Of a stretch of DNA of 64,000 nt, positions 22,088 to 60,958 are shown one piece after another. The stretch covers positions 1 to 64,000 of the IMG/VR virus record IMGVR_UViG_3300029215_000002. One strand, written 5' to 3'. The notes beneath the pieces are model-generated. The model saw only the letters and a program-made list of their open reading frames with translations. It was not told the DNA's origin and did no database searches. The DNA comes from a virus. The number at the start of each line of letters is the position of its first letter. Within the stretch, counting starts at the first letter, position 1. Both the position numbers and the translations under genes were made by a program.

Positions 22088-22117
22088 TTTCTTATTCTCC
22101 TTTCTTATTGTAAATAA

Positions 22118-22189
22118 CGGGGCTAATCGGATTCGAACCGATGAATGCAGAGATCAAAACCCTGTGCCTTACCACTTGGCGATAGCCCT
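22118..22189 (-). tRNA. tRNA-Gln: tRNA-Gln (anticodon UUG), 72 nt, no encoded CCA
   Basis: Hand-folded cloverleaf: acceptor AGGGCUA/UAGCCCC, D-arm GCCA-AGUGGUA-AGGC, anticodon stem CAGGG/CUCUG with loop UUUUGAU, T-arm AUCGG-UUCGAAU-CCGAU, discriminator G. Very similar to E. coli tRNA-Gln. Position 1:72 is an A·C mismatch. Confidence 0.8.
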
Positions 22190-22224
22190 ATATTTTGTGA
22201 TGAATTAACTCATCACAATTATTT

Positions 22225-35929: not shown

Positions 35930-36110
35930 ATAAAAAGTTATAATTATCTTATCTTTTATGTTTCATTCCTACTTCTATGAGTATGCTTTTGAGGGTTGCT
36001 TGCAACCCTCTACTTACAAGTTCTTGTACTCTCCATAGGCGTAAATTCCTGACTAACGAATCAGTACATATCTGTGATAACTTGATTGTGTTATACTACA
36101 GATTGTTTTA
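35930..36110 (-). ncRNA. Candidate omega-RNA (TnpB guide RNA scaffold) overlapping the 3' end of tnpB and the element's right end
   Basis: Position expected for omega-RNA. It contains a perfect hairpin GAGGGTTGC-tt-GCAACCCTC and further short hairpins (TACAAG-tt-CTTGTA; CTGAC..TCAG) immediately 3' of the tnpB stop. Confidence 0.35.
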
Positions 36111-37281
36111 AAATATTTTCTCCGTATTTTTTTAGATTTAAAGAAGCTTGATAATCTCTGTCAATTACATTTCCACATTCACATCTGTAAATACGGTCTG
36201 ATAAACTTAAATCTTTCTTGATTGTTCCACAACAACTACATAATTTAGAACTTGGAAAGAATCTGTCTACAATGATTACTGAAATATTATTCCAAACAGA
36301 CTTATATTCAATTTGTCGTCTAATTTCATAAAATCCTTGTTGTTGTACTGCTTTGGATAAATGCCTATTCTTCATCATTCCACTTACATTCAAATCTTCT
36401 AACACAATAAAACTTGGTTCTCGTTTTATAATCTCTGAAGTTATATGATGTATGTAGTTCTGACGAATGTTTGTTAGTCTATGATTTAATTTTAATAAAA
36501 GTTTTTCCTTTTTGATTACATTCTTTGTTTTACAGTAACTTTCTCCTTTCTTATTTTTTCCATATTTTCTTGATATAGAACGCTGTAATCTGCGTTTTTG
36601 TTTTTCTAACTTCTTAACTCTTTGTGTCTTGTTAATGTTTTGATATTTATTACCATCAGAACATATTGCTAAATCTTTAATTCCTAAATCAATTCCAATT
36701 CCTTCATTAGACGGATTTATAGTGGAATCTTCATACTCAATACCAACCGTAAAATACCAATTTATTCCATCATATTTGATACGAGGATTCGTGTACTTAC
36801 AATCTGTAGGTATTCTATTATGTTCTGCAAGTCTAATCCAATTTAACTTTTGTTTGCTTTTCTTCTTAGAATTAGCAAACCCCTCAACTTTTACATGAGT
36901 ATCAGAAAATTGAATCCTTACATTATCCTGATAGAAAGATGGCATTGAAAATTTACGGCTTTTAAACTTAGGGAATTTTGAATATCCTTTGAAAAATCTC
37001 TTATATGCGTTGCAAGCATCTTTAATTGCTTGTTTTGTTACATTATTAGAGATTTTATTTAACCAAGAATATTTATCAGTTTTCTTCAACTGTGTAAATT
37101 CTTTTCTCAAATCTCCATCAAATATGAACTTGCCACCATTTTTATGGTTTTCTTTTTCTCTACTTAAAGCCCAATTATAAGCAAATCTGGCAGTATTAGC
37201 ATATTGGAAAAGTTTAGTCTTTTGCTTGTTATTTGGAAGTAACATTACTCGAATTGTTTTTATCATCTTTTTCACCTCCAT
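36091..37281 (-). CDS. tnpB: TnpB (IS200/IS605/IS607-family OrfB RNA-guided endonuclease), intact, 396 aa
   Basis: RuvC-I GIDLGIKDLA, RuvC-II IVLEDLNVSGM, zinc finger CSCCG...CECG, RuvC-III DRDYQASLNL. Confidence 0.85.
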   Translation of the reverse strand: MEVKKMIKTIRVMLLPNNKQKTKLFQYANTARFAYNWALSREKENHKNGGKFIFDGDLRKEFTQLKKTDKYSWLNKISNNVTKQAIKDACNAYKRFFKGYSKFPKFKSRKFSMPSFYQDNVRIQFSDTHVKVEGFANSKKKSKQKLNWIRLAEHNRIPTDCKYTNPRIKYDGINWYFTVGIEYEDSTINPSNEGIGIDLGIKDLAICSDGNKYQNINKTQRVKKLEKQKRRLQRSISRKYGKNKKGESYCKTKNVIKKEKLLLKLNHRLTNIRQNYIHHITSEIIKREPSFIVLEDLNVSGMMKNRHLSKAVQQQGFYEIRRQIEYKSVWNNISVIIVDRFFPSSKLCSCCGTIKKDLSLSDRIYRCECGNVIDRDYQASLNLKKYGENILKQSVV

Positions 37282-52720: not shown

Positions 52721-52855
52721 TTTCTTGTAATAAAATAGGCAGCTAGGTATTTATTCTCCTAACTGCCTTTGCGTTTGCGTTATTCTGTTTAGTTGCTAAA
52801 TTAAGTTATAATTAGTTCATACTGAAATGTAAATAAGAAATCTTAGTTTCCTTTG

Positions 52856-53614
52856 TTAAAATAAATCATTCTTTTTTATTTCTTTAAGAACAACATCTCT
52901 GTTCTTCAAAGTAATTGTATATGGTATGCCTCCTCTATATCCAAATATTTTACCAGATTCACGCATTTTTCTGTTGTCTTCTGCTGTAAACCTCCTTCCA
53001 CTACTAACAACAGATCCAATTTCAAATAATTCAGAGTCAAGTTTCTCCTTTGCATTTGCCTCACTATCAGCCTCTATATTCCTTGTACATGTTTTAATCT
53101 CTTCTTCCTTAGTTGAACTATCAACATAAGTTTCTGAAATCTCAAATACATATACGTTATCATAAGCAGGAATACCTAATTCCCAACATACAATTTCTTT
53201 TGCTTCCGATTCTAAAATTCCTTGCAGGGCTACCCGAAAAGAAATTCTTTCATCCTTTGAAAGCTGTTCATACTTTTCCATTCTTTCTATTTCAAATGGA
53301 AATTCATAATCAACCACTCTGCCGCTATCATAAAGAGCATCAACAGTTGCATCATCACAAGTAAAAAATGAACCATCAGAACAAACAAACCAATTTGTCT
53401 TTCCCTTTCCCTCTACATCTTTTACAGTTGCGAAATCTTGATACATTTCTGTTGGACAATCAATCTCTCCAATGTATCTATACTGCAAATCTTCTTTCAG
53501 ACTTGCAACCCTTCTCCGTGAATCTTCCTCTATAGCAGAAAATAAATTCTGCCAATCTTTATTACTTAACGCCTCTAACTGTTCCATAATATTTGCCATA
53601 ATATCATCCTCCAT
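52856..53614 (-). CDS. hypothetical protein (252 aa)
   Basis: minus-strand ORF; GGAGGATG RBS; a conserved structured leader upstream. Confidence 0.5.
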   Translation of the reverse strand: MEDDIMANIMEQLEALSNKDWQNLFSAIEEDSRRRVASLKEDLQYRYIGEIDCPTEMYQDFATVKDVEGKGKTNWFVCSDGSFFTCDDATVDALYDSGRVVDYEFPFEIERMEKYEQLSKDERISFRVALQGILESEAKEIVCWELGIPAYDNVYVFEISETYVDSSTKEEEIKTCTRNIEADSEANAKEKLDSELFEIGSVVSSGRRFTAEDNRKMRESGKIFGYRGGIPYTITLKNRDVVLKEIKKNDLF

Positions 53615-53722
53615 TCAGATTTAGTTTGTCATCATCAGTCTACAAGTTACTATCTTGCATAGACCGCCTGTAATAAGGCGGTTTCGACTTAATTCTTTGT
53701 AATGAAATGCGAATTTAGTCTG

Positions 53723-53998
53723 CTATAAATGTTCAACCAAATCTCTTGCAAGTTCCATATCATTTTTACCTTGTGCGATTCCGACACATGCAGCTTTAAG
53801 CATATTTATACTTGCCTGTTCACTTTCTCTACATCTGTCTATAATAGATTGATGGTACTCTTTTTCAACTTCCCTCAATCTGGTATTCTCCTGCCTTAAA
53901 TATCTATTTTCTCTCACAATATCAGCAAGTCCTAACACCAATTCTTCTATATCATATCTTTCCATATTTGCTTTCCTTTCTTCCAATGAAACACGCAT
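53723..53998 (-). CDS. hypothetical coiled-coil protein (91 aa)
   Basis: minus-strand ORF. Confidence 0.4.
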   Translation of the reverse strand: MRVSLEERKANMERYDIEELVLGLADIVRENRYLRQENTRLREVEKEYHQSIIDRCRESEQASINMLKAACVGIAQGKNDMELARDLVEHL

Positions 53999-54013
53999 TT
54001 AATCAGTTACTTT

Positions 54014-54304
54014 TTAATCTGCATAATACAACCCCCATTTTACTTCGACAACTTCCCAAGTCCATTCATATTCTCCATCGTAGGATGAAAGATATGCTGT
54101 ACCGTCATCACTAATTGTTAAATCAATTAAATCTTTATCTCCGTCATCTGCATTATTCACTTCTTCTTCATAAGTGTTTTGTGCATCCTTTTTGAGAAAT
54201 GTATAAGCATCATCCTCATTATCGAATATATCATGGCTTGCAATTTCCTTTTCGTGAACCGCATAACAAATTACTACATATTTTTTCATATTATCACCTC
54301 TCAC
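54014..54304 (-). CDS. hypothetical acidic protein (96 aa)
   Basis: minus-strand ORF. Confidence 0.4.
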   Translation of the reverse strand: MRGDNMKKYVVICYAVHEKEIASHDIFDNEDDAYTFLKKDAQNTYEEEVNNADDGDKDLIDLTISDDGTAYLSSYDGEYEWTWEVVEVKWGLYYAD

Positions 54305-54322
54305 TTTAAAATGTTGTTTTCC

Positions 54323-54595
54323 TTAGGCTGTCGCAGTTTCAAACATATGAAAACTATAACTAGACCCAATTCCAACTTCACCATTTTGTTCACCGATGAT
54401 TTCGCTTAATAAGTCAATCATTTCATTTTGACTTTTAGTTCCGTATAAAATATTTCTTGTACCTACCCATACAATGAAGTATTTATAACCCCAATAACAA
54501 TCATCACCATTGTCAAATACAGGTGGATCTGTAGTGAAATATACTTCACCGTTTAGTTTGTTAGCTAACTGTTTTAACTCCCTTTTTATTTTCAT
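54323..54595 (-). CDS. hypothetical protein (90 aa)
   Basis: minus-strand ORF. Confidence 0.4.
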   Translation of the reverse strand: MKIKRELKQLANKLNGEVYFTTDPPVFDNGDDCYWGYKYFIVWVGTRNILYGTKSQNEMIDLLSEIIGEQNGEVGIGSSYSFHMFETATA

Positions 54596-54617
54596 ATTAT
54601 TACCTCCAGTTTTATTT

Positions 54618-54884
54618 TTATAAGTTATTGTATATGTAATTACAAGTTTCGATTATCTTTTCTCTGTTCGCAGCTTCTCTTTTGCGTTGCATTGTTTCAA
54701 AATGCTTTTGAGAATGTATAATAGATTTGTATACATCTATTGCAATCTTTGTGACACTTAATGCTAATAATGTTATTGTTGCAAATAAAAGTCTTGTACC
54801 AACACCATAAGGCAAGAAAAAAGCAACTGCAAAAACAGTTGCTAAAATTAATTTCGCTTTTTTAGTTATGTATAAATGTTTCAT
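54618..54884 (-). CDS. two-TM membrane protein (88 aa)
   Basis: LILATVFAVAFFLPYGVGTRLLFATITLLALSV. Confidence 0.4.
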   Translation of the reverse strand: MKHLYITKKAKLILATVFAVAFFLPYGVGTRLLFATITLLALSVTKIAIDVYKSIIHSQKHFETMQRKREAANREKIIETCNYIYNNL

Positions 54885-54915
54885 AATATTCCCTCCTTAA
54901 TTTTAATTTCGTTTT

Positions 54916-55269
54916 TTAGTTCCAATAGTACCAATCAATAATATTATTGTTATTGTCTAATACAAGTTCTACAATTACTTCATCCCAGTTATCAGCTGTA
55001 AGGTAGAATGAGTCGTTGTAAATATACTCATTTCCCTTGCTATCTACAAAATGAATAGCTGGTTTATTGTTTATACACGCAATTGATTTAATTTTTGCGT
55101 GTTCGTAATGAATAGCTGTTTCCGTTGTAATTGTAGGCGTTGCGTCTGTAGGTGTTAATGATACACCTAGTACAGTTGTTAATGTTAAAATTGCAGTTGT
55201 TAAAAGTTTCTTAAACTTCATAATTAAAACCTCCGTTTCGTTTTTTTTAGGTATAAAAATAACAGCCAC
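54916..55269 (-). CDS. secreted protein with a signal peptide (117 aa)
   Basis: MKFKKLLTTAILTLTTVLGVSLTPTDA. Confidence 0.4.
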   Translation of the reverse strand: MAVIFIPKKNETEVLIMKFKKLLTTAILTLTTVLGVSLTPTDATPTITTETAIHYEHAKIKSIACINNKPAIHFVDSKGNEYIYNDSFYLTADNWDEVIVELVLDNNNNIIDWYYWN

Positions 55270-55307
55270 CGTTTTTGATGACTGTTGTTAGTTACTGTTT
55301 CGCTTAT

Positions 55308-55706
55308 TTATTTTTGTAAATATTTTTGAACAAACTTTGGAAGTTCATAATAATAGTAATCATATTCATCCTCAATTTGTTCATTCTGGATTTCTCTATA
55401 GCTAGACCATTCATCTATGGTAATTCCATATTCTTCGTATAACCATTCAGAAAATGATAACTTGCCTTCCGTATTAGGAGTTGGAATGGTTTCAAGCTCA
55501 AAGTCGGTTTCTTCGATACTAAACCAGTCCATTTCCCATTCTCCGTTTACCTTTTCGTAGATACTTAGGCATCCATTGCTTTCCCACGTACTTGTGGCGA
55601 TAGGATTACCGGTTTCGGTATTTACACCGTACCAAAAGCCATTTTTAAGTGTAAATCCGTGGTAATTAGCACTTTCAAAGTCTGCCATTTTCTTTAATTT
55701 AAGCAT
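55308..55706 (-). CDS. hypothetical protein (132 aa)
   Basis: minus-strand ORF; a conserved hairpin motif in the leader. Confidence 0.45.
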   Translation of the reverse strand: MLKLKKMADFESANYHGFTLKNGFWYGVNTETGNPIATSTWESNGCLSIYEKVNGEWEMDWFSIEETDFELETIPTPNTEGKLSFSEWLYEEYGITIDEWSSYREIQNEQIEDEYDYYYYELPKFVQKYLQK

Positions 55707-55864
55707 AATTGCCTCCTTATGTGAGAGTCCTCACCCCAAATATTTTTATACGCATTTGGGTTGCGTTAGTTATTATGTATGAATATTGGTTTCCCATTTA
55801 TATAAATGGTACTTACGGTGAGAACCACGAGAAGGTTTCCAACACTCCCACCATAAGGCAAAAA

Positions 55865-56074
55865 TTAATTTGCCTTTTCGTCATCATCATCTTTGTGACG
55901 GCGTAATGATACACCTTTTTTATTTATTATTACATCGTATTCACCGTCACAGAAATCTTTCATTAGCCCTTCTGTAATAATAGATAACGGTAAACCGTAA
56001 CTATTTTTACAACACTCTTTAAATTCTTCAAAGAGTGTTTCTTCTAGGCTTATATTTACATTTTTTGTTGCCAA
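55865..56074 (-). CDS. hypothetical protein (69 aa)
   Basis: minus-strand ORF. Confidence 0.35.
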   Translation of the reverse strand: MATKNVNISLEETLFEEFKECCKNSYGLPLSIITEGLMKDFCDGEYDVIINKKGVSLRRHKDDDDEKAN

Positions 56075-56252
56075 TTAGACCACATCCTTTCAATATGTTT
56101 TTCTATTATTTTAACACAGTTTTAAAATAGTGTCAAAATGTAAATTAAAAGTCTGTAATCCGACTCAGTATTTAAGCCGTTTTAAAAGTATTTTATTCAT
56201 TGGGATTCCTCCTAGCTAGTATTCGTTTTTTATTTTTATGACGCAAAATCTC

Positions 56253-56453
56253 TTATATTGTTACACCCTTTTCTTTTAAGCATAATAATAAAAAATTGAG
56301 TGTATCCAAGTTATGGTTTTTCATAGTTGTGTACACTTCATAGATGGCATCATAATCATCCTTAAAAGCTTTTCTGATACCGTTTAAAAGCATTTCATCT
56401 ATATTGTTGTTATCAATGTCACAATAAATTATGACAAATTTTTTAATTGACAT
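56253..56453 (-). CDS. hypothetical protein (66 aa)
   Basis: minus-strand ORF; AGGAGG RBS; both conserved leader motifs upstream. Confidence 0.4.
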   Translation of the reverse strand: MSIKKFVIIYCDIDNNNIDEMLLNGIRKAFKDDYDAIYEVYTTMKNHNLDTLNFLLLCLKEKGVTI

Positions 56454-56587
56454 AATAGCCTCCTTATAGGTAATTCTACCCCTTGCATATTTTTATACGC
56501 TTGCAAGTAGCGTTAATTTTTTTGGCTTGTCATCATCAGTACACAAGTAGCCAACTTGTATAGACTAGGCATAAAGCCTAGTTTCGA

Positions 56588-56806
56588 CTATTCGTCATCT
56601 TCTAACGGTGTTTCTTTATCAGGCACAATCATACCGTCAGAATTGATTGTTGCTGTACCTACTTCTAGCACAAGATTATTTCTTGCGTATTCAAGTGCAA
56701 GTTCGTGCGTTTCAAAAATGATGATGTGTTTTTCAGCTGGCATCATATCTAATACGCACTTTTCATATTTTATATATCCGTACACTTCTAGCCCACCTCC
56801 TTTCAT
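56588..56806 (-). CDS. hypothetical protein (72 aa)
   Basis: minus-strand ORF. Confidence 0.35.
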   Translation of the reverse strand: MKGGGLEVYGYIKYEKCVLDMMPAEKHIIIFETHELALEYARNNLVLEVGTATINSDGMIVPDKETPLEDDE

Positions 56807-56879
56807 TGGACTTTATATAAAAATACGCACTATAGTTATATTAATAAATAATACATATGGTGCGTAAATTATAGCAAAA

Positions 56880-57125
56880 TTAATTTAATTCAACCATTTT
56901 TACATCGTAACCAGCCTTAAATACGCAACCAATTTTTCCATTGTAAATACGCCCAATCCATTCTAGGCGTATTAACGGTTTGTCGTTGACTTCGAAGAAA
57001 ATATCTTCAGGTAATAACTTATGCAATCCATATTTTATAGCGTGTTTTGCACACGCTAACAACAAGCTGTCTGGTGTAGTGTCTGATGTTATGACGGTTA
57101 CTGGTAATCCTAAGCAAGTTACCAT
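56880..57125 (-). CDS. hypothetical protein (81 aa)
   Basis: minus-strand ORF. Confidence 0.4.
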   Translation of the reverse strand: MVTCLGLPVTVITSDTTPDSLLLACAKHAIKYGLHKLLPEDIFFEVNDKPLIRLEWIGRIYNGKIGCVFKAGYDVKMVELN

Positions 57126-57180: not shown

Positions 57181-57208
57181 TAAAAAAGGACTACTAAAAA
57201 GTAGTCCA
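57181..57208 (-). terminator. rho-independent terminator (GGACTACT-aaaaa-AGTAGTCC + U-run on the minus transcript)
   Basis: 8-bp stem with an A-run on the plus strand immediately 5' (U-run 3' on the minus strand). Confidence 0.5.
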
Positions 57209-58449: not shown

Positions 58450-58534
58450 AGTTATACCACCTTTTTAATTTTTAAAATTTTTTTAACAACTAGATACAAT
58501 TCGACCTTGAAAACGCAAAATGCAAAACATTATG

Positions 58535-58559
58535 CAACACAAGTATTGTACTTGTGTTG
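58535..58559. promoter_or_regulatory. Operator-like palindrome CAACACAAGTA-ttg-TACTTGTGTTG in the early promoter region
   Basis: Perfect 11-bp inverted arms about 85 nt upstream of the first minus-strand gene. A second near-palindrome TACAATATTGTA lies at 58573..58590. Confidence 0.5.
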
Positions 58560-58813
58560 TCTTTTTAAAGTTATACAATATTGTACATCATTCTTTTTTC
58601 GTTAGTTCTCCTGTACAGAAGAACCCTTTTTTGTTTCTTTTATTTTATTTTTTCTATACAGAAGAAATAAAATAGAAAAAATTATGATATAACCTATTTT
58701 CAAAGTACACTAGTTTTTCAAAAAAAAACTAGAAAAAACAAAATATGTAATTTGTAAAAAAGAATTTAAAATTTGAATTGTAAAAAATCGACATTTTAAG
58801 ATAAACAACGCAC

Positions 58814-59932: not shown

Positions 59933-60958
59933 ATGAATGTTTATTTAGTACCTATATCAACCAATAAATCTAAAAATTTTAATTATCTTAGACTTTGTTT
60001 TGCATTTAGTGAGAAAGAAGCTTACATTCAGACAAGTAAAGAATTTCCCCTTAATGAAGTTCAATCATACAAAGAAATTCCTTATGACATTTTTGATATT
60101 AATTTTTTTAGTATAAAAGAATCTATCATCTTTAATAAATCAAAAAAATATGATATAATAAAGAAAATATATACTAAGGAGAGGATTAATATGGATATTT
60201 ATGATTATATGGATTGGGGAGACTATAATGCAAAAATCAAAGAACTTGCTGGGAAAGCCCTACCCGAAAAATGGAGTTTTGATAACAATGAAGATAATTA
60301 TATTTTAAAGAATTATTTAAAATACACTTTCAATAAACTTCAAGACGAAGGTAAAGTCATAGAGACAGAAAATTATTGTGTTTTTGATACTGGATTATTT
60401 TCTTGCTATTATGAACCAATTTATGTATATGGAGAATTAAATAAAAATAATGATGGAAATGCTGAGAAATGGTTTTTTAAAGGGTTTAAGGATAAATATG
60501 AATTAGGAGCATTAGATGTAATTAAAGATTTTCCACAAAGAGCAGATTTCTTTTCTGACCCTTCAAGATTAGTGTTCAATTGGCATTTAGAAGTAAATAA
60601 AAATTATAAACATATTCTTGATGACTTAGATACATCCCAAAGATTACCTGATTCTATTAAAAACAGTGAAAGACCTTTAGATGTATTAAAAGGAGTTATA
60701 GATACTGCTATCCAAAAAGTAATAGCAAATTATAAATTAGCAGTTCCTCATTATTATCAAAATAAAATACAATTATTAGTTCCTTTATGTTTTGGGAGAG
60801 ATGATAAACCTGATGTAGCATTAGTATTGGATTTAAAGAAAAATGGATATTATCAAGCTACCACATGTTTATCTATGGAAATGGCTTATATGGATGCAAG
60901 ATTAATAACAAAGCCAGAATCTAATTGGTTAATAGCTGAAAATATAAAAGAAGATTAA
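59933..60958 (+). CDS. hypothetical protein (341 aa); first gene of the plus-strand block
   Basis: Plus-strand ORF with an RBS AAAGGAGAGAG. The promoter-like motif AATAGAGAATATATAAGT lies about 40 nt upstream. No confident family assignment. Confidence 0.55.
   Translation: MNVYLVPISTNKSKNFNYLRLCFAFSEKEAYIQTSKEFPLNEVQSYKEIPYDIFDINFFSIKESIIFNKSKKYDIIKKIYTKERINMDIYDYMDWGDYNAKIKELAGKALPEKWSFDNNEDNYILKNYLKYTFNKLQDEGKVIETENYCVFDTGLFSCYYEPIYVYGELNKNNDGNAEKWFFKGFKDKYELGALDVIKDFPQRADFFSDPSRLVFNWHLEVNKNYKHILDDLDTSQRLPDSIKNSERPLDVLKGVIDTAIQKVIANYKLAVPHYYQNKIQLLVPLCFGRDDKPDVALVLDLKKNGYYQATTCLSMEMAYMDARLITKPESNWLIAENIKED

Follow-up and report, generated by a model that had tools for sequence, protein, structure and literature searches.

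The question raised by this locus is what kind of element occurs twice, in related form and at a length of about 70 nt, on the minus strand between the genes of a virus. The two copies occupy 53620..53689 (copy 1) and 56520..56589 (copy 2) of the window, i.e., the whole stretch of 64,000 nt analysed here (positions 1 to 64,000 of the IMG/VR virus record IMGVR_UViG_3300029215_000002). Both lie on the strand of every neighbouring gene (minus) and are read from 53689 down to 53620 and from 56589 down to 56520, respectively. The analysis described below indicates that both elements are, very probably, type II hammerhead self-cleaving ribozymes that belong to a leftward phage transcription unit of many genes; judged by its sequence, each of these RNAs is most likely its own nuclease.

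The presence of two copies with common blocks, noted in the original prediction, is correct: a repeat finder pairs 53620-53664 with 56521-56565 (45 nt, 80% identity, family D6), and the common blocks are visible in a pairwise alignment of the two copies, where the shared string GTTTCGAC sits past the variable hairpin. The span originally given for copy 1, 53615..53722, does contain the element but equals the whole intergenic gap, the element itself being shorter, and the single-base difference (C/A) described before ACAAGT turns out to involve two bases (CT vs AC in the interval from TGTCATCATCAGT to ACAAGT). The differences within the internal hairpin, in contrast, are true compensatory changes. 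This hairpin is stem III, in which four pairs are changed on both sides between copy 1 and copy 2 (C-G to U-A, G-C to A-U, C-G to G-C, and C-G to G-C); what had been overlooked is stem I (CAAG...CUUG), a pseudoknot connecting the stem I loop to the tail, in which two central pairs are changed on both sides (G-C to A-U and C-G to U-A), and the catalytic core. Both copies fold more stably than shuffled sequence (z = -2.9 for copy 1 and -2.8 for copy 2), as two hairpins closed by GUC/GAC.

Read from 53689 down to 53620, the layout of copy 1 is A-GUC-GAAA-C CGCC UUAUUACA GGCG G-UC / UAUGCAAG AUAGUAA CUUGUAGA-CUGAUGA-U-GAC-AAACUAAA. The 5' strand of stem II, GUC (positions 11.3-11.1; 53686..53688), pairs with the 3' strand GAC (10.1-10.3; 53628..53630) and is followed by the core segment GAAA (G12 A13 A14 A15.1; 53682..53685), identified both in the sequence and in the Rfam alignment. 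Then comes the stem III hairpin (A15.1-U16.1 and CCGCC/GGCGG, loop UUAUUACA; 53663..53682), the covarying hairpin of the original prediction, and the predicted scissile bond between C17 (53662) and U1.1 (53661), placed by the position of the GUC triplet relative to the core. The stem I hairpin (UAUGCAAG / CUUGUAGA, loop AUAGUAA; 53639..53661), apparent from sequence and folding, leads into the core segment CUGAUGA (C3-A9; 53638..53632, from sequence and Rfam alignment) and an inserted U10 (53631). The 3' tail ACUA (53622..53625) forms a 4-bp pseudoknot with UAGU (53649..53652) of the stem I loop.

Copy 2, read from 56589 down to 56520, has the layout A-GUC-GAAA-C UAGGC UUUAU GCCUA G-UC / UAUACAAGU UGGCU ACUUGUGUA-CUGAUGA-U-GAC-AAGCCAAA. 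Here the stem II strands GUC and GAC are at 56588..56586 and 56531..56529, the stem III hairpin (A-U and CUAGGC/GCCUAG, loop UUUAU) is at 56564..56582, and the stem I hairpin (UAUACAAGU / ACUUGUGUA) is at 56540..56562, both hairpins being apparent from sequence and folding. Sequence and Rfam alignment agree on the predicted scissile bond between C17 (56563) and U1.1 (56562) and on the core segment CUGAUGA (56539..56533) with the inserted U10 (56532). The 3' tail AGCCAA (56522..56527), which matches the Rfam consensus tail AGCCaAA, forms a 6-bp pseudoknot with UUGGCU (56554..56549), a segment that spans the top of stem I and its loop.

Thus, the catalytic core (CUGAUGA, GAAA, and the GUC cleavage triplet) is complete in both copies: C3 U4 G5 A6 U7 G8 A9, G12 A13 A14, A15.1-U16.1, and C17 coincide with the type II core C3 U4 G5 A6 N7 G8 A9, G12 A13 A14, A15.1-U16.1, H17 (not G). 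Three covariation-supported helices surround this core, and the sequence and the Rfam alignment both yield the type II permutation, 5'-II-GAAA-III-UH-I-CUGAUGA-II-3', with stems I and III closed by loops and stem II open; the pseudoknot joins the stem I loop to the nucleotides immediately 3' of stem II. When the U that follows A9 is treated as an insertion, the pairs adjacent to the core are standard in both copies (1.1-2.1 U-A, 10.1-11.1 G-C, and 15.1-16.1 A-U), which is the acceptance rule applied by Perreault et al. 2011 (PMC3088659).

An Rfam search identifies both copies as Hammerhead_II (RF02276) over model positions 1-66, with 32.1 bits (E = 4e-5) for copy 1 and 35.2 bits (E = 6.5e-6) for copy 2 in searches of 201 nt; in a search of the whole window, the E-value for copy 1 is 0.014. 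Both scores are below the Rfam gathering score of 37 bits, which is an operational cut-off rather than a biological feature, so that default Rfam annotation omits the two copies. Part of the shortfall arises because the UG after A9 is aligned as an insertion and because the central U-A pair of stem II differs from the model consensus. Besides Hammerhead_II, only one tRNA and one RAGATH-18 RNA are matched in the whole-window Rfam search.

A search of the region 52800..57000 for DNA similarity to a phage collection, covering both near and distant relatives, detects nothing; therefore, relatives were sought through the RNA pattern. A scan of IMG/VR with a pattern that fixes the core strings only (GTCGAAAC, GTCT, and CTGATGATGAC) identifies at least 119 loci in viral contigs, with 147 distinct copies and up to six per contig. 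The same variant is found at 52 loci in species-representative bacterial genomes from many phyla; the bacterial genome scan shows no close relative of this phage. The core strings being imposed by the search pattern, their invariance among the 147 copies is not evidence. In a plain MAFFT alignment of the 147 copies, the proposed pairs form in 89.6% of the cells, compared with 24-42% when the partners are slid by 1-3 columns, where cells are counted over related copies and are not independent events; the covariation score of the same alignment is 0.462, compared with 0.05-0.09 for the slid controls. The variable pairs of stem III, stem I, and the pseudoknot each display 3-6 standard pair types across the 147 copies, and in the four central columns of the pseudoknot (helix 5) pairing is found in 75-94% of the copies, also with 3-6 standard pair types each.

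The covariance model R1, trained on the 147 copies and run with the filters off, reports only two sites in the window, copy 2 with 69.2 bits and copy 1 with 62.2 bits, the next-best match scoring 13.1 bits; a short-motif search of the window for further copies yields none at 0-1 mismatch and only chance-level matches at 2-3 mismatches. When run over 40 of the viral loci, R1 detects 107 copies, 22 of which are outside the search pattern. In the model-found copies, pairing holds in 98.4% of the cells, and stems I, II, and III all show two-sided changes. Stem II covaries where the pattern left it free (G-C to A-U five times, U-A to C-G six times), the pattern-free copies including GCC/GGC, GACC/GGUC, and AUC/GAU. 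The search for more copies and the covariance model proposed in the original prediction thus produced 147 copies and a structure confirmed by covariation.

The strand on which the pairing is selected can be judged from an alignment-free count over the six core-nearest pairs of stems III and I, in which 1683 of 1764 are Watson-Crick, 53 are G.U, and 8 are A.C; the large excess of G.U over A.C points to pairing in RNA of the strand that carries the ribozyme, rather than in DNA or in the opposite strand. The same comparison on the plain MAFFT alignment (89 G.U vs 90 A.C) carries no signal; in that alignment, the short-stem subclass is out of register, and the pseudoknot ends are often unpaired. 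Together with the full-length Rfam matches and the covariation, the G.U excess bears out the earlier view of a functional RNA structure on the mRNA strand. That view had named a riboregulator, an RNase site, a protein-binding leader, or a structured DNA site as candidates; none of these is the best fit, the full hammerhead core being present.

A point against the identification is that stem II, which in both copies is open, consists of only three pairs, GUC/GAC, and requires one extra U between A9 and G10.1 to be looped out. Among the related copies, some have no U at this position (CUGAUGA-GAC) and one has C instead; the form without the extra U was also matched in a scan of viral contigs, and both forms can be present in one contig. 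Because of these sister copies and the covariation of stem II, the U is read, on comparative grounds, as an optional insertion between A9 and G10.1. The insertion appears compatible with activity because U at this very position is reported to accelerate cleavage: the plus-strand hammerhead of CChMVd has A between A9 and G10.1, and, in the part of PMC3705267 that cites De la Pena and Flores 2001, U in its place is given as raising the rate 3-4-fold. The hammerheads of Penelope elements conserve the same extra base position (PMC4209133).

With respect to the genes, the original placement of the element between an upstream gene and the start of a downstream minus-strand gene is correct. Copy 1 begins 34 nt past the stop of a 91-aa ORF, and its GAC is 15 nt before the ribosome-binding site GGAGG (53612..53608) of a 252-aa gene (ORF 52856..53614, minus strand, likely start ATG at 53599..53597). 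Copy 2 starts within the TAG stop (56588..56590, minus strand) of a 72-aa ORF, which overlaps its first bases, A56589 and G56588; it is followed by a conserved 74-nt block and then by a 66-aa gene. The interval between the two ribozymes is about 2.9 kb and holds eight small genes. Pfam and PHROG scans of the ten flanking ORFs identify no family, so that gene function is no guide to interpretation in this case.

The same placement recurs among the 147 copies. The stop of a same-strand ORF (at least 40 codons) is located within 10 nt upstream in 83% of them, compared with 5.5% of random positions at the same loci; a Shine-Dalgarno-like motif is present within 40 nt downstream in 127 of the 147, at a median of 10 nt after GAC; and the next ORF starts within 30 nt in 68 of the 140 copies that have a downstream ORF. 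In some viral contigs, stretches of 2-4 kb contain at least six type II hammerheads (L029:9360-12151, L089:1081-5476, and L093:11310-13074), with roughly one hammerhead before each small gene and GGAG plus a start codon often only a few bases on. A further observation concerns a bacterial subgroup (L125, L127, L132, L134, L148, L153, L157, L167, and others) with a near-identical stem I, CUCAGAGGUGGCCUCCUGAG, and tail, AGGCUUAAUUUUUGU. This subgroup is common to distant bacteria, among them Pandoraea, Alcanivorax, and Marinomonas, and close variants of it are present in Sphaerochaetaceae and Cloacimonadota, which hints at a widely transferred element.

Five related viral contigs show the same gene order as the window, with 75-97% protein identity for most genes, and have ribozymes at the same junctions. 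In three cases (L014:2035-2225, L019:7658-7798, and L056:132-272), the upstream gene is replaced by an unrelated sequence, and the ribozyme is kept together with the downstream gene. For copy 2, homology with those contigs begins at TAGTCGAAAC, and for copy 1, it begins 22-33 nt ahead of the ribozyme; the break in the relatives is 0-33 nt from the 5' edge of the ribozyme. The ribozyme thus seems to be linked to the downstream gene. The stronger proposition, that it travels as a unit with that gene and forms the shared boundary of exchangeable phage gene cassettes, is unlikely on the present comparison; arrays of up to six near-identical cores within about 2 kb would, on account of that similarity, be ready substrates for recombination.

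The 74-nt block that directly follows copy 2 is present twice in the window, at 55704..55777 and 56451..56524 (read on the minus strand; 70% identity, family D2), upstream of two minus-strand genes, and is conserved in related contigs. The block consists of a hairpin, ACGC(U/A)...(A/U)GCGU, with one compensatory change, followed by the invariant AUAAAAAUAU, GGGGU, and AUAAGGAGGC.AUUAUG, and its exact string GCGTATAAAAATAT is found only at these two sites. It may represent a phage-specific promoter, operator, or leader. A promoter scan of the window predicts 36 sites compared with 28.5 +/- 5.8 in shuffled sequence; being no better than shuffled, it is uninformative on a promoter after copy 2.

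The wider window is part of a large phage genome, with genes for a DNA polymerase III alpha-like protein, a primase-helicase, and replication initiation proteins. Its nearest record, with 85% polymerase identity, is a human faecal phage of 176 kb that carries no annotation, and the more distant relatives, linked through the DNA polymerase, are Clostridium phages. The direction of the genes changes near 59 kb, where the first plus-strand gene (59933..60958) encodes a DUF3825 domain, and bidirectional terminator-like hairpins are located at 58534..58560 and 57188..57207. The tRNA is a tRNA-Gln with anticodon UUG (22117..22190, minus strand). The RAGATH motif set owes its name to an association with genes that are found near twister and hammerhead ribozymes. 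The RAGATH-18 RNA of this phage (35966..36039, minus strand) scores 65.3 bits, above its gathering score, and lies about 50 nt downstream of a 396-aa TnpB-like gene (36091..37281, minus strand; Pfam OrfB_IS605, Cas12f1-like TNB, and HTH_OrfB_IS605). Since IS607 TnpB nucleases and RAGATH-18-derived guide RNAs are paired in the same way in published work (PMC11061315), the phage probably carries an RNA-guided TnpB element.

By hammerhead chemistry, the upstream piece acquires a 2',3'-cyclic phosphate upon cleavage and the downstream piece a 5'-OH, and it is from this established chemistry of the family that the reaction and the exact site are predicted for the two copies. During transcription, each RNA would fold into three helices around the core, with stem II open, stem III after GAAA, and stem I after GUC, and stems I and II would be held side by side by the pseudoknot that the stem I loop makes with the tail 3' of stem II. 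The core would then catalyse attack of the 2'-OH of C17 on its own 3' phosphate, an internal transesterification predicted to cut after C53662 (53662|53661) in copy 1 and after C56563 (56563|56562) in copy 2. The stem III hairpin with the 2',3'-cyclic phosphate would form the end of the upstream RNA, and the downstream RNA would start with the 5'-OH, the stem I and pseudoknot structure standing near its ribosome-binding site. The two ribozymes most likely cut a long phage mRNA into shorter pieces. The net effect would be a polycistronic phage RNA split at gene boundaries, with two cuts bracketing eight small genes. Neighbouring cistrons could then differ in mRNA stability and translation; such an uncoupling of their fates is what Perreault et al. 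proposed for multiple prophage hammerheads, arrays of which cleave in vitro (PMC3088659). Against the read-through RNA that this reading implies over copy 2 stands the conserved candidate promoter block that follows that copy. In a further and unlikely model, the 2.9-kb RNA between the ribozymes would have a 5'-OH and a 2',3'-cyclic phosphate end, which an RtcB-type host ligase could join; circular or spliced products were looked for elsewhere by Perreault et al., and none were found (PMC3088659).

Several other explanations have to be weighed against self-cleavage. The elements, or at least copy 1, could be hammerhead-derived relics that have lost catalysis, or boundary hairpins that act, e.g., as exonuclease barriers. 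Copy 1 lends this some substance because the second pair of its stem I is an A1.2.G2.2 mismatch that is unique to the window (five of the five closest relatives have U at 2.2), and its pseudoknot is only 4 bp long, features with which it may cleave slowly; both copies, moreover, score under the Rfam gathering cut-off. Yet no core nucleotide is altered in either copy or in any of the close relatives, the pairs adjacent to the core (1.1-2.1, 10.1-11.1, and 15.1-16.1) are all standard, and the substitutions in the relatives are confined to loops or keep the pairing, position 1.4/2.4, for example, being G-C, G.U, or A-U. Preservation of 13 unpaired core bases would not be expected of a mere hairpin, and loss of catalysis is accordingly an improbable account of these elements. 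A leader that is structured without being catalytic, be it a site for a phage or host protein, a target of a small RNA, or a cut site of the RNase III type, would agree with the location just upstream of ribosome-binding sites and with conserved single-stranded segments that a protein could read, and matches to C/D-box RNAs, weak and at chance level, come from UGAUGA and CUGA. Those matches score 8-18 bits compared with cut-offs of 37-80, and the conserved unpaired segments are precisely those of the hammerhead core, correctly ordered and spaced with respect to three helices. There is no protein that regularly accompanies the element: the ORFs on either side belong to no Pfam or PHROG family, and the same element is found in hosts of many phyla, all of which makes such a leader very improbable. 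A C/D-box or k-turn RNA, in which box C (RUGAUGA) at one end and box D (CUGA) at the other form a k-turn and enclose a guide region, was also considered as a specific identity and rejected: UGAUGA and CUGA overlap inside the hammerhead core, and the idea was dropped because GAAA, GUC, and the order of the helices read as a hammerhead, in concordance with Rfam.

Finally, the repeat might act in DNA, as a recombination site or cassette boundary, a small mobile repeat, or a transcription terminator. Its position at gene boundaries, the several copies per contig, and the exchange of the upstream gene while the element stays with the downstream one are what such a site would produce. The excess of G.U over A.C (53 vs 8) indicates instead that the pairing is selected as RNA on one strand, and the orientation of the element, in the window as well as in its relatives, is always that of the coding strand of the adjacent genes. 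Neither element is surrounded by terminal inverted repeats or target duplications, neither hairpin is followed by a run of U, and both are absent from the list produced by the terminator scan; a role in DNA thus has next to no probability. The intrinsic terminator, a G+C-rich hairpin with a U run, was rejected as an identity in its own right, stem III being followed by GUCUAU and absent from the terminator scan. The observations are best compatible with type II hammerhead ribozymes.

With this identification, two unexplained conserved leaders become a named element whose predicted cleavage sites are placed to the single nucleotide. These copies and many like them escape routine Rfam annotation when the gathering threshold is applied: the variant with GUC/GAC in stem II and an extra U after A9 is abundant in viral contigs, and many more phage hammerheads would be recovered if the model were relaxed slightly or retrained. 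The quantified placement provides background for what hammerheads do for phages and reveals no new mechanism. The finding is real and well explained, but ordinary.

Among known systems, the closest is RF02276 itself as described by Perreault et al. 2011 (PMC3088659), with which the window copies share the core, the permutation (stems I and III capped, stem II open and very short), the pseudoknot, and the intergenic setting in phages and prophages. Also described there, for type II hammerheads, are the pseudoknot of loop I with the 3' tail, stems II with just two pairs, several hammerheads that flank phage genes, and cleavage in vitro (PMC3088659). The window copies differ in the extra U between A9 and G10.1, in a stem II of GUC/GAC instead of the consensus GC/GC, and in the A+U-rich stems, and score 2-5 bits under the gathering cut-off. 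The prophage hammerheads of Clostridium scindens, Azorhizobium caulinodans, and the ardA locus of Agrobacterium tumefaciens (PMC3088659) are similar in that several are present, on the coding strand and at gene boundaries; it was proposed that they cut the phage transcript into mRNAs of single-gene or operon length (PMC3088659). In vitro cleavage has been reported for those RNAs, whereas the window ribozymes are predicted, are known from sequence, and have flanking genes without a recognisable family. Here, two ribozymes bracket eight small genes, and related contigs contain up to six within about 2 kb.

The type II hammerheads in phage-like regions of Desulfovibrio vulgaris, which cleave in vivo according to cyPhyRNA-seq (PMC8782182), likewise lie beside hypothetical and phage-like genes, but belong to a different host lineage and have no sequence relationship to the window copies beyond the family. 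The hammerheads of CChMVd (PMC3705267) and of Penelope elements (PMC4209133) have an extra base at the same core position; these are of type III or type I and come from viroids and eukaryotic retroelements, whereas here the type is II, the bearer is a bacterial virus, and the insertion is optional. Twister, twister-sister, and pistol as well as hatchet ribozymes have the same kind of phage gene neighbourhood and a presumed role in RNA processing, but their folds and cores differ, and the whole-window Rfam search gives no match to them. Already published are the class and its permutation, the pseudoknot, a stem II of very few pairs, and the arrangement at phage gene boundaries, with the class, the pseudoknot, and the phage habit known since 2011; new are the two members in an uncharacterised gut phage lineage, their scoring below the cut-off, and the counts that quantify placement relative to stop codons and ribosome-binding sites.
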